In this document: piece by piece, positions 60,021 through 64,000 of the stretch
Position numbering within the stretch: position 1 is the stretch's first letter
How the letters are laid out: each line of letters starts with the position of its first letter
Assembly (NCBI GenBank): GCA_000004695.1
Contig: CM000154.2
Location: forward strand, 3,136,001 to 3,200,000
Reading direction: 5' to 3'
Origin: Dictyostelium discoideum
Taxonomy: Eukaryota
Length of the DNA stretch: 64,000 nucleotides
The notes under the pieces: model-generated
Database searches by the model: none
The model's input: only the letters and a program-made list of their open reading frames with translations
Told to the model about the DNA's origin: nothing
Position numbers and translations under genes: made by a program

Positions 60021-63000
60021 ATGGAGGTCGATTCCAAATCAAAAGAGATTGAACAATATGATCAATGGTTATATTGTTCAAATTGTTTAAATGGAGTGTT
60101 GGAATATAAACATTTGGGTTTTTATATTGATATGGAGGGTGTTTATCTCGAGGTTCTAAGAGATAGTTCAAGTATTTTTAATAATAATCATTTCTATGAT
60201 CACAACTATAGAGATGGTGCTGATATTATAGATCAATTACCAAATATTGATAGATATCATTTAGTTTCAAAATCATTACAACAACAATATTCAACAACAG
60301 TCAATGATAATAGTTATTATATGTTTGATTCAAGAAAACATGATTTATTAGTCCAAAAACCATATTTAATGTGTAGCTATAAAGAATGTTATAATATAAT
60401 TGGTTTCTATCATATGAATCCATTTAAAAAGGTATTTTCATTTCGTCTTGATCATGCAAAAACAATTTTAGACTTTGGATATGAAGATAAACCATGGAAA
60501 TTCTTTTTAAATAATCCTATTTTCGAAAAAATTCAAGTTTATAAAAATCAAGATATTGATTATTATGGTTTTAATTCAATAAATAAAAAATATAATAATA
60601 ATAATGATAATAATAATAATTTTAATAATAATAATAATAATAATAATAATAATAATAAAAATAATAATAATAATAATAATAATAATAATAATAATAATAA
60701 TAATAATAATAATAATAACAATAATAGTTTAAATAGTTTATTTAAAAATAATGATAATAGTAATAAATTTCAACCAAGAATGGAAACAAAAGATGTTCAT
60801 TATAAACCAACAAAGTTACCACAAGAAAAACCAATGATACCAAAATTTAAAGAAGGTGTAGAAATTATACCAAGAGATTATCAAATTGAAAGTTATTATC
60901 AATCTACTCAAGATAATACATTATTGGTATTACCAACTGGTATGGGTAAGACATTGGTATCAATAATGACATTGTTAGAGATGTTTAGTATAAATGATCA
61001 AGATAATTCATGTGGTGATTCAAAGAGGATAGCTTTGTTTTTGGTTGATAGAGTACCATTGGTTACACAACAAGCCGGTGCAATTGAAGCAATTACAAAT
61101 TTAAAAGTATGTAAATTATATGGTGAAATTAATGATAGTAGAACAAGAGCATTTGTTAGATCAAAAGAATATGATGTATTGGTGTCCACAGTCGGTAGTT
61201 TAGTGAATCTTTTAGAGGTACGTCATTTGAATATACTCGATTTCTATTTCATCACTTTTGATGAAGTTCATCATGCAACTGGTGAACATGATTTCAATAA
61301 GGTGGTTGATTACATTCGTAAAACCGATTTAAACTATAGACCAAGAATCTTGGGTTTAACGGCTTCACTTGTAAGTATTGGTAATTCAACGATTGATATA
61401 GTTCAAAGATCAATCAAAGATATGGAGGAAAGAATGCTTTCAAGAGTTTTCAAACCAACATCATTACTTACAAATTCCACTCAATCAGAATTACAACCTG
61501 AATTGGTTTCGTTCAAAACCTCTGGTCAAGAATCATTAATAGAAACTTCGATTTGTGAATTTTTGGTATCAAATAGTAAAGAATTACAAATCTTTTTAAA
61601 TTATAGTGATGTTGATTTGGATGGTGTTAGAGGTAATCCATCTTTTTTAAAAGCATTGGAAAGATTAGATAAATATTCCAAACAATTAGAATCAATCTAT
61701 ATAGAGTATACAAAAGTATTGATAGAACTATATGCATTGTTATCAGTATTGTCAACAGAAGGACCAAAACAAGTTTTAACTAGATTGGATCTTTTAATGC
61801 AATCTACCAATCAAGAGAATGAACTCTACAATAAATTATTGGAATTAAGATATTACATTAGTGGTCAATATGAAGATAGGGAATCAAATTTTGAAAAAGG
61901 TTCAACTCGTTATAGAAAGTTAATCAGTTCTTTAGAATATGCAATTAGCGATGCATCCGATGGTGAATTACAAAAGGATTTAAGAATTTTAGTTTTTGTT
62001 GAAACTAGATTCGGTGCATCAAATTTAACTTCAATGTTAAAGAAAGAACCATTCCAAGAGTATTTACACACCAAGAGATTGGTTGGTCATAATGGTGTCG
62101 ACGGTATGGATTCAGAGAAACAACAAAGTATAATTAGAAAATTTAGAGATGGTAAATGTAGGTTAATAGTTACAACAAATGTATTGGAAGAGGGTATTGA
62201 TGTTCAAGATTGTAATATAGTAATTTGTTATGATGGTATATTAAGTTTAAAATCATTAATTCAACGTAGAGGTAGAGCTAGATCAAAAAATGAATCAAAA
62301 TTCATTATAATTTATAATGATGATAAAGATTTAAAAATATTAGATATATTAGTATGTATATATTAATTATATATACTTTTTTTTAAAAAAAAAAAAAAAT
62401 GAAAATTAATAACTCTTAATTATAATTTTTTAGAGTAGTGAAAATTTATTAAATAATTCAATTAATCAAATTTTATCAAATAGAGAGAGACAAGCTATTA
62501 CAAAAAATCAATTTTTAAATTGGAAGAAATTAAATATTAATAATGAATATTTTACAAATAATCAACTTGATGGTGGTCCATTAGATAAAGATATAAAATG
62601 TGTGATTTTATCAATTTATCATATTGAAATTGATATTGAAACTTTTAGAGAGCTTTTATTATTCCAACTTCCAGATATTATCAATCAAGTTGACCAAGTT
62701 TCAATTAGAATGGAAGGTGATGATGAATATTTATCAAGTTATATAATCGTTATTTTAAATACATGTATAGATAAAGAGCAATCAATTTATAGATTAAAAT
62801 CTTTATTAAATATAAATGGTCTTAAATATTGGATGATTGATAGATCTTCGTTTCATTTTGAAGATGATAATATTAATGATTTAAGTCAATCTAAAAATAA
62901 AAATTATTCAATTAGAAGTTTTGAATATGGTAATATGTCAAGTCCAACAAAATATCATGGTATTGGTCAATTGGATGATTCATTCGAATTGTTTTATGGC

Positions 63001-64000
63001 AAAAGAGAAATGTTTTTCACAAAAAAAACTAGATTTCAAAGATATAGATTAAATTTAAAATTAACCGATATTGAAAGTACATTTTTACTTGTAAATGATA
63101 AATATCAAAATATTGTTCATATCCTATTGATTGTAAAAAGACCATTAATTTTCGAGGAAGAGAAAAAAACACATATAGTTTTTTGGAATAAATCAAAACC
63201 AAAGAAAGATGATTTTGGTCAAGCATTTGTATATAGATTAACATTATCAACAATAGATAATGAAATTAAAGAAGTGATTAAACCATTGATAGCCAATGGA
63301 TTCAGAATGTATGAATCATCTTTAGAGTTAAATTGTTTTATTCAAGGTGGTATTAACAAAAATAACAATTGTATGATTATCGATTTAAATTTACAATATA
63401 TTAAAAGGAATTTGGAAATTCATTATTTATTACAATGTTTACAAAGTCAAAGTTCATATGGTAGAGTTTTAAATCAAGATTTTATAGTTGAAATTAATAA
63501 TCTATTGGCATTTGGTAAACAAGAGGAAGCAGAGTTCATTATAACATCATTGATTTCAAAGAGAACTAAATTCATTAATTATAAAGAATTCATAGGTGAT
63601 TGTTTGAAAAATTTTTTACCCGATCCTTATTATGCAAAGAAAAAGGATCTCTCAACAAAGAGTGGTGAATTTACAATGATTCGTGATGTTTTTATAACAC
63701 CAAGTAGAACTATTTTCATTCAACCAACACTACAAAGATCATGTAGAGCTGTTCGTAAATTTGGTTCATCCAATTTCATTGTGGTTAAAATTGTAAATGA
63801 ATCATTGGAACCACTTCAAGGTGTAAATAATAAACATCCACTTCATGAGAATAGAATTAAACCAATACTTGAGGGTGGTATATTGGTTGGTGGTGAAATC
63901 TATTCGTATGCTGGTAATAGTAATAGTCAGTTAAGAGAATATTCATCTTGGTTCGTTTCTAATCAAATTGGTACACATACGGTTAAAATTTGGAGTGGTA
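60021..64000 (+). CDS. RNA-dependent RNA polymerase with N-terminal Dicer-like DExD/H helicase (Dictyostelium RrpA/RrpB/RrpC(DosA)-type), 3'-partial; join(60021..62351,62434..>64000)
   Basis: Exon 1 has helicase motifs I (LVLPTGMGKT), II (DEVHHATGEH), III (LGLTASL) and C-terminal helicase motifs VTTNVLEEGIDVQDCNIVICYD, QRRGRAR. Donor GTATGT at 62352, 82-nt intron, acceptor TTTTTTAG. Exon 2 is open to the window end with eukaryotic RdRP-family motifs (TMIRDVFITPSRTIFIQPTLQRSCRAVRKFGSSNFIVVKI, YSYAGNSNSQLREYSSWFV). Confidence 0.8.

Follow-up and report, generated by a model that had tools for sequence, protein, structure and literature searches.

The questions raised by this locus are which RNA-dependent RNA polymerase (RdRP) gene of Dictyostelium discoideum begins near its 3' end, and whether the helicase and polymerase sequences found there belong to a single protein. 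The stretch analyzed (64,000 nucleotides of contig CM000154.2, GenBank assembly GCA_000004695.1; hereafter the window) carries, from position 60021 to its last base, a sequence that an initial annotation had described as a partial RdRP gene with a fused Dicer-like helicase. Comparison with a published restriction map indicated that the locus is almost certainly rrpA (DDB_G0289659), one of three cellular RdRP genes of this amoeba, and the window is predicted to hold the promoter-proximal 54% of the gene (residues 1–1299 of 2417). Both rrpA and its helicase-on-RdRP architecture are already known, and the locus is an ordinary, known gene.

The initial annotation had left the choice among rrpA, rrpB and rrpC (dosA) undecided and had noted that rrpA and rrpB are near-identical. 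This near-identity agrees with the published value, 94% between RrpA and RrpB, whereas RrpC shares only approximately 35% identity with RrpA/B. Domain content indeed cannot separate rrpA from rrpB, but the StyI/ClaI map of the locus resolved the gene as rrpA. Wiegand and Hammann (2013; PMC3661229) described two Southern probes, with their primers, that recognize rrpA and rrpB alike, and listed in Table 2 the StyI/ClaI fragments expected from the wild type: for rrpA, 2888 and 1840 bp; for rrpB, 2941 and 2779 bp. Each of the four primers had an exact match at the locus. In an in-silico digest, the first probe (primer #0022 at 61326 and primer #0034 at 61678) fell on a 2888-bp fragment (60493–63380) wholly inside the window, bounded as follows.

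60492..63384, diagnostic StyI–ClaI fragment of 2888 bp, with the StyI site CCATGG at 60492–60497, the ClaI site ATCGAT at 63379–63384 and the first probe inside

The second probe fell on a 1840-bp fragment at positions 16884–18724 of L001, a chromosome-scale contig from a public D. discoideum assembly (GCA_054883475.1, CM142511.1, 5.29 Mb) that was located via the single-exon PhyH gene at 57439–58437 of the window. Window positions 47412–64000 aligned without mismatch to L001 1–16562; the six small gaps in this alignment lie upstream of rrpA, and the gene segment of the window was identical to L001. Because both StyI/ClaI fragments equaled the published rrpA sizes to the base pair, the gene was assigned to rrpA.

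The alternative that the gene is rrpB (DDB_G0291249), the 94%-identical paralog, draws on the near-identity of the two proteins, on their having the same domain content and on the design of all four probe primers for both genes, but the observed fragments of 2888 and 1840 bp are 53 and 939 bp shorter than those expected for rrpB. In addition, an exhaustive search detected a second D. discoideum copy at another locus (P0033, KAM9969012.1, 2381 residues) that was 93–94% identical to the protein of the window, a value that fits the published RrpA/RrpB identity. The neighbors of this copy (GCA_054859355.1, JBTAPG010000039.1, 10001–17239; locus L002), which encode Rpb5 and GINS Psf3, are wholly different from those of rrpA, which encode CLU, actin, FUSC_2 and PhyH proteins. 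Two points weigh against the assignment to rrpA. The paralog call is built on the lengths of two restriction fragments and on primer matches rather than on a direct match to a named AX4 or dictyBase sequence, and the positive control for rrpB failed: the StyI/ClaI fragments at the P0033 locus, 2854 and 1974 + 802 bp, agree with neither the rrpB sizes (2941 and 2779 bp) nor those published for rrpA. An exact match was also lacking there for two of the four primers. Derived from another assembly and isolate, the P0033 locus is not a clean rrpB control; the sum of 1974 and 802 bp (2776 bp, near 2779 bp) may point to an rrpB with an additional ClaI site, on which we did not rely, and the data suggest that P0033 represents a divergent isolate with rrpB-like synteny. 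We retain rrpA and consider rrpB very improbable. The chance that the gene is rrpC, which has the same helicase and RdRP architecture, is practically negligible; the identity of RrpC to RrpA/B of approximately 35% contrasts with the 93–94% found between the protein of the window and the second copy, and neither of the primers for the rrpC probe (#0028, #0029) had a match in the window or in L001, so that this reading is refuted.

Word-indexed protein searches contributed little to naming the gene. With the 1299-residue translation, the matches listed included only Dicers and Hef/FANCM helicases, and saturation by poly-Asn is probable; with residues 778–1299, nothing was returned, although the 94%-identical protein was afterwards found by the exhaustive search, and the word index evidently fails to bring up D. 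discoideum entries.

The gene model of rrpA within the window consists of the following parts.

60021..62351, plus strand, exon 1 of rrpA, residues 1–777, with a Cys-rich domain, a poly-Asn linker and a helicase of the Dicer/RIG-I-like receptor (RLR) type
62352..62433, plus strand, intron of 82 nt, GTATGT...TTTTAG, phase 0, predicted from the sequence
62434..63693, plus strand, first part of exon 2, residues 778–1197, with the end of the helicase (a long helix) and the RdRP N-terminal accessory region
63694..64000, plus strand, start of the Pfam RdRP domain, PF05183 positions 1–93 of 582, cut by the end of the window at residue 1299 of 2417

The reading frame begins with the ATG at 60021, with an in-frame stop codon at 60009, twelve bases 5' of the ATG. 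Exon 1 comprises 777 codons and is identical, with the same start base, to that of the 2417-residue gene called in L001. Exon 2 has no stop codon between 62434 and the end of the window, and the conceptual product inside the window is 1299 residues long, which bears out the description of a partial gene at the window edge. In L001, exon 2 runs on to a stop codon, and the resulting protein of 777 + 1640 = 2417 residues has exactly the length annotated for the gene in L001. No open reading frame (ORF) longer than 74 residues was found on the minus strand within 60021–64000, and the window holds no tRNA genes.

The 82-nt GTATGT..AG intron of the initial annotation is present at 62352–62433, and whether it joins the helicase and RdRP halves decides between one gene and two. 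In the two-gene alternative, a helicase gene would end at 62364–62366 and a separate RdRP gene would lie downstream. The unspliced frame of exon 1 does stop at 62366, after four more codons (VCIY), which speaks for two genes. On the other side, the 82 nt between the two exons begin and end with the canonical GT and AG and have a GC content of 8.5%, compared with 25–26% in the flanking exons. In an alignment with five homologs from other dictyostelids, all of them single chains, the splice junction was ungapped (DIL at the end of exon 1, SSENLL at the start of exon 2), and a Glu three residues into exon 2 was invariant. The alignments with Dicer helicases also cross the junction and run 18 residues into exon 2, the public gene model agrees with the predicted splice, and the literature describes each Rrp protein with both helicase and RdRP domains. 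Two adjacent genes are thus a far-fetched reading of this region, and a single gene in which the predicted intron joins the helicase and RdRP halves is supported by evidence that is indirect but consistent.

The cellular RdRP identity of the downstream half was supported in the window and beyond it. PF05183 matched residues 1198–1287 of the conceptual product with an E-value of 3.5e-15 and a score of 56.2 bits (cutoff 23.8); the end of the window limits this match to profile positions 1–93 of 582. The full-length protein from L001 matched positions 1–582 with 466.4 bits (E = 2e-139). Extension in the 3' direction also revealed the DxDGD motif and the stop codon that the initial annotation had expected: the catalytic DLDGD lies at residues 1609–1613, equivalent to window position 64927 and approximately 930 nt past the window end, and the stop codon follows residue 2417. 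Neither of the two outcomes that the initial annotation named as refuting it was thus observed. Both peptides quoted earlier for the RdRP region are present, TPSRTIFIQP at 63697–63726 and NSNSQLREYSSWF at 63916–63954. The RdRP does follow the intron, as had been claimed, but its catalytic region is not immediately adjacent; approximately 420 residues of accessory domains come first (within residues 778–1197, which open with the end of the helicase), consisting of a beta-alpha-beta-beta-alpha unit, a PH-like beta-barrel and a helical bundle.

The helicase and its motifs were located as follows.

60861..62351, plus strand, DExH helicase, Dicer/RIG-I-like (Hel1, Hel2i insertion and Hel2), from Pfam and phmmer, with a terminal helix that extends into exon 2
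60933–60953, plus strand, helicase motif I, PTGMGKT
61260–61271, plus strand, helicase motif II, DEVH
61359–61367, plus strand, helicase motif III, TAS
62262–62282, plus strand, helicase motif VI, QRRGRAR

Pfam matches to ResIII (4e-17) and DEAD (4e-15) covered residues 284–450, and a match to Helicase_C (4e-19) covered residues 650–753. When residues 278–795 were compared with PDB sequences by phmmer, the best matches were the ancestral Dicer helicase AncD1D2 (1.3e-46) and Drosophila Dicer-2 (2e-38), each aligned in one contiguous stretch with the Hel2i insertion included; plant and animal Dicers came next, and then RIG-I, MDA5 and LGP2. The term "Dicer-like helicase" is accurate, since Dicer helicases outranked RIG-I, MDA5 and LGP2 among the PDB matches. 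Motifs I, II, III and VI had been assigned correctly, but the helicase does not form the N-terminus of the protein: approximately 280 residues precede it, made up of the Cys-rich domain and the poly-Asn tract. The placement of the helicase on the RdRP rather than on Dicer in Dictyostelium agrees with published work. The Dicers of D. discoideum have no helicase domain (PMC2175303; PMC10328071), and Hinas et al. (2007; PMC2175303), citing Martens 2002, described DrnA and DrnB as being without an N-terminal helicase and attributed the presence of this motif on the RdRPs to "domain swapping".

The region upstream of the helicase contains two features.

60063..60530, plus strand, N-terminal Cys-rich domain, residues ~15–170, C19-x2-C22 ... 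C118-x4-C123, predicted to be beta-rich
60594..60725, plus strand, poly-Asn tract, (AAT)n, residues 192–235 (44 residues), separating the N-terminal domain from the helicase

In a low-confidence structural model, the Cys-rich domain may tentatively be likened, at the level of fold, to the C-terminal domains (CTDs) of RIG-I-like receptors. Sequence comparisons of this domain gave no Pfam match to the RLR CTD (PF11648) at E-values up to 10, no match in a profile search of the PDB, and a probability of 0.2% in an hhalign comparison with an alignment of the RIG-I CTD. The poly-Asn tract was recorded by Tandem Repeats Finder as 45 copies of period 3 at 60592–60726, and it is much shorter in the 94%-identical paralog.

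At the C-terminal end of the protein, outside the window, a further module was recognized in L001.

L001 18370–18690, equivalent to window positions 65800–66130, Cid1/TUTase-like palm domain, residues ~1930–2035 of RrpA, Pfam MTPAP-like_central

RrpA scored 27.5–30.2 bits with MTPAP-like_central, just above the cutoff of 27. The palm domain was matched in three of six homologs (best E-value 1.5e-12), some of which also matched TUTase, PAP_assoc and KH models; in RrpA, the palm domain is followed by a PAP-associated-like segment and then by a possible KH domain at the C-terminus. A phmmer search of the PDB with the C-terminal 532 residues matched only poly-Asn proteins, and a six-homolog profile was needed: the profile built from six dictyostelid C-termini matched TUT4 (9e-4), URT1, CutA and GLD-2 at the G-S...DxD motif. 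RrpA has NSNLNL where TUT4 has DSDLDI, so that two catalytic aspartates are replaced by asparagine and the catalytic DxD is absent. The NxN form occurs in RrpA and in the 94%-identical paralog, and the homolog P0035 keeps DSDLDL. Because of the replacement of DSDLDI by NSNLNL, the C-terminal module of RrpA is probably a dead nucleotidyltransferase. A literature search that was far from exhaustive found no mention of an N-terminal RLR-CTD-like or a C-terminal Cid1-like domain. The predicted order of domains in RrpA, from the N- to the C-terminus, is a Cys-rich domain, a poly-Asn tract, a Dicer/RIG-I-type DExH helicase, an RDR accessory region, an RdRP domain with DLDGD and a degenerate Cid1-like module; the RdRP catalytic domain with DLDGD and the Cid1-like module lie beyond the window.

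Family knowledge and the published genetics suggest that RrpA would use a targeted mRNA as template for complementary RNA. The double-stranded RNA (dsRNA) so formed would then be cut by the helicase-less Dicers DrnA and DrnB into small interfering RNAs (siRNAs) of approximately 21 nt, by which silencing would be amplified. The covalently attached helicase may act in cis in the ATP-driven handling of dsRNA; elsewhere in eukaryotes, this activity would reside on Dicer or on a separate helicase of the RNA-directed RNA polymerase complex (RDRC). In the experiment of Martens, as summarized in PMC3661229, an 800-bp lacZ hairpin caused full loss of the mRNA and the appearance of siRNAs, both of which depended on RrpA. 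In this RrpA-dependent RNA interference, no siRNAs were found unless the target mRNA was also there (PMC3661229), which is a signature of target-templated amplification. Other results in the same source weigh against a general role of this kind: with another hairpin reporter, deletion of rrpA had no effect, and 5' spreading and the control of DIRS-1 were likewise unaffected by the deletion and depend on RrpC (PMC3661229). Because these three cases show no dependence on RrpA, its role in amplification is context-dependent.

The upstream neighbors of rrpA, an ordinary chromosomal context, are listed below.

Upstream of rrpA, within 45881–58440, plus strand, CLU-domain protein of 1563 residues
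50995–52122, minus strand, actin gene
53390–56518, minus strand, FUSC_2-domain membrane protein
57439–58437, plus strand, PhyH dioxygenase, single exon

Placement of the gene via the dictyBase neighbor noxA (DDB_G0289653) was dropped, as the downstream gene fragment in L001 was not recognizable as noxA. Elsewhere in the window, two full-length U5 spliceosomal snRNA genes at 28866–28980 (minus strand) and 29226–29340 (plus strand) are divergent and approximately 245 bp apart; they scored 78.9 and 78.3 bits with Rfam RF00020, for which the cutoff is 40. An ORF at 4427–6430 (plus strand, 668 residues) encodes a single protein with RhoGAP, RasGEF_N and RasGEF domains (Pfam E-values 8e-13, 8e-17 and 1.5e-54, respectively).

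As rrpA and the transfer of a Dicer helicase to RdRPs have been known since 2002 and recur in later papers, the finding adds little. What is gained is that the earlier reading was verified, that the paralog was settled as rrpA by the published restriction map, and that the intron and the domain borders were fixed in window coordinates.

RrpA shares the helicase–RdRP fusion, the junction region and the C-terminal nucleotidyltransferase-like module with RrpB, RrpC (DosA), D. purpureum F0ZCV1, T. lacteum KYQ91823.1 and P. violaceum KAF2073447.1. The Rrp homologs outside D. discoideum are 21–31% identical, and in the D. purpureum and T. lacteum models the protein begins with the helicase and has no N-terminal Cys-rich domain. 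The best solved relatives of the rrpA helicase (residues 281–795) are the Dicer helicases of Drosophila Dicer-2 and AncD1D2, with which it has the Hel2i insertion in common, but in RrpA the helicase is joined to an RdRP instead of PAZ and RNase III domains. The fusion of a helicase to the RdRP also distinguishes RrpA from plant RDR2, fungal QDE-1 and Schizosaccharomyces pombe Rdp1, members of the same Pfam family (PF05183); these enzymes are not known to carry a helicase, and the partner helicase, where present, is a separate protein.

The fission-yeast RDRC consists of Rdp1, the helicase Hrr1 and the nucleotidyltransferase Cid12. The same three activities are united in RrpA, namely a helicase, an RdRP and a nucleotidyltransferase fold of the Cid1 family. 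It is conceivable, but on balance doubtful, that dictyostelid RrpA-type proteins are a single-chain RDRC with an added RNA-end sensor, in which a zinc domain truly homologous to the RLR CTD precedes the helicase, rather than following it, and is succeeded further on by the RDR polymerase and a Cid12-like transferase. Were the N-terminal domain such a true homolog, RLR-type helicases would have been combined with CTD-type end recognition before animals arose. An RLR-CTD-like fold and a dead Cid1-like module could, on evidence that is weak or at the level of fold, explain how substrate is supplied to the helicase-less Dicers. Compared with the RDRC of S. pombe, RrpA differs in being a single polypeptide, in having a helicase of the Dicer type and in a nucleotidyltransferase that is probably inactive.

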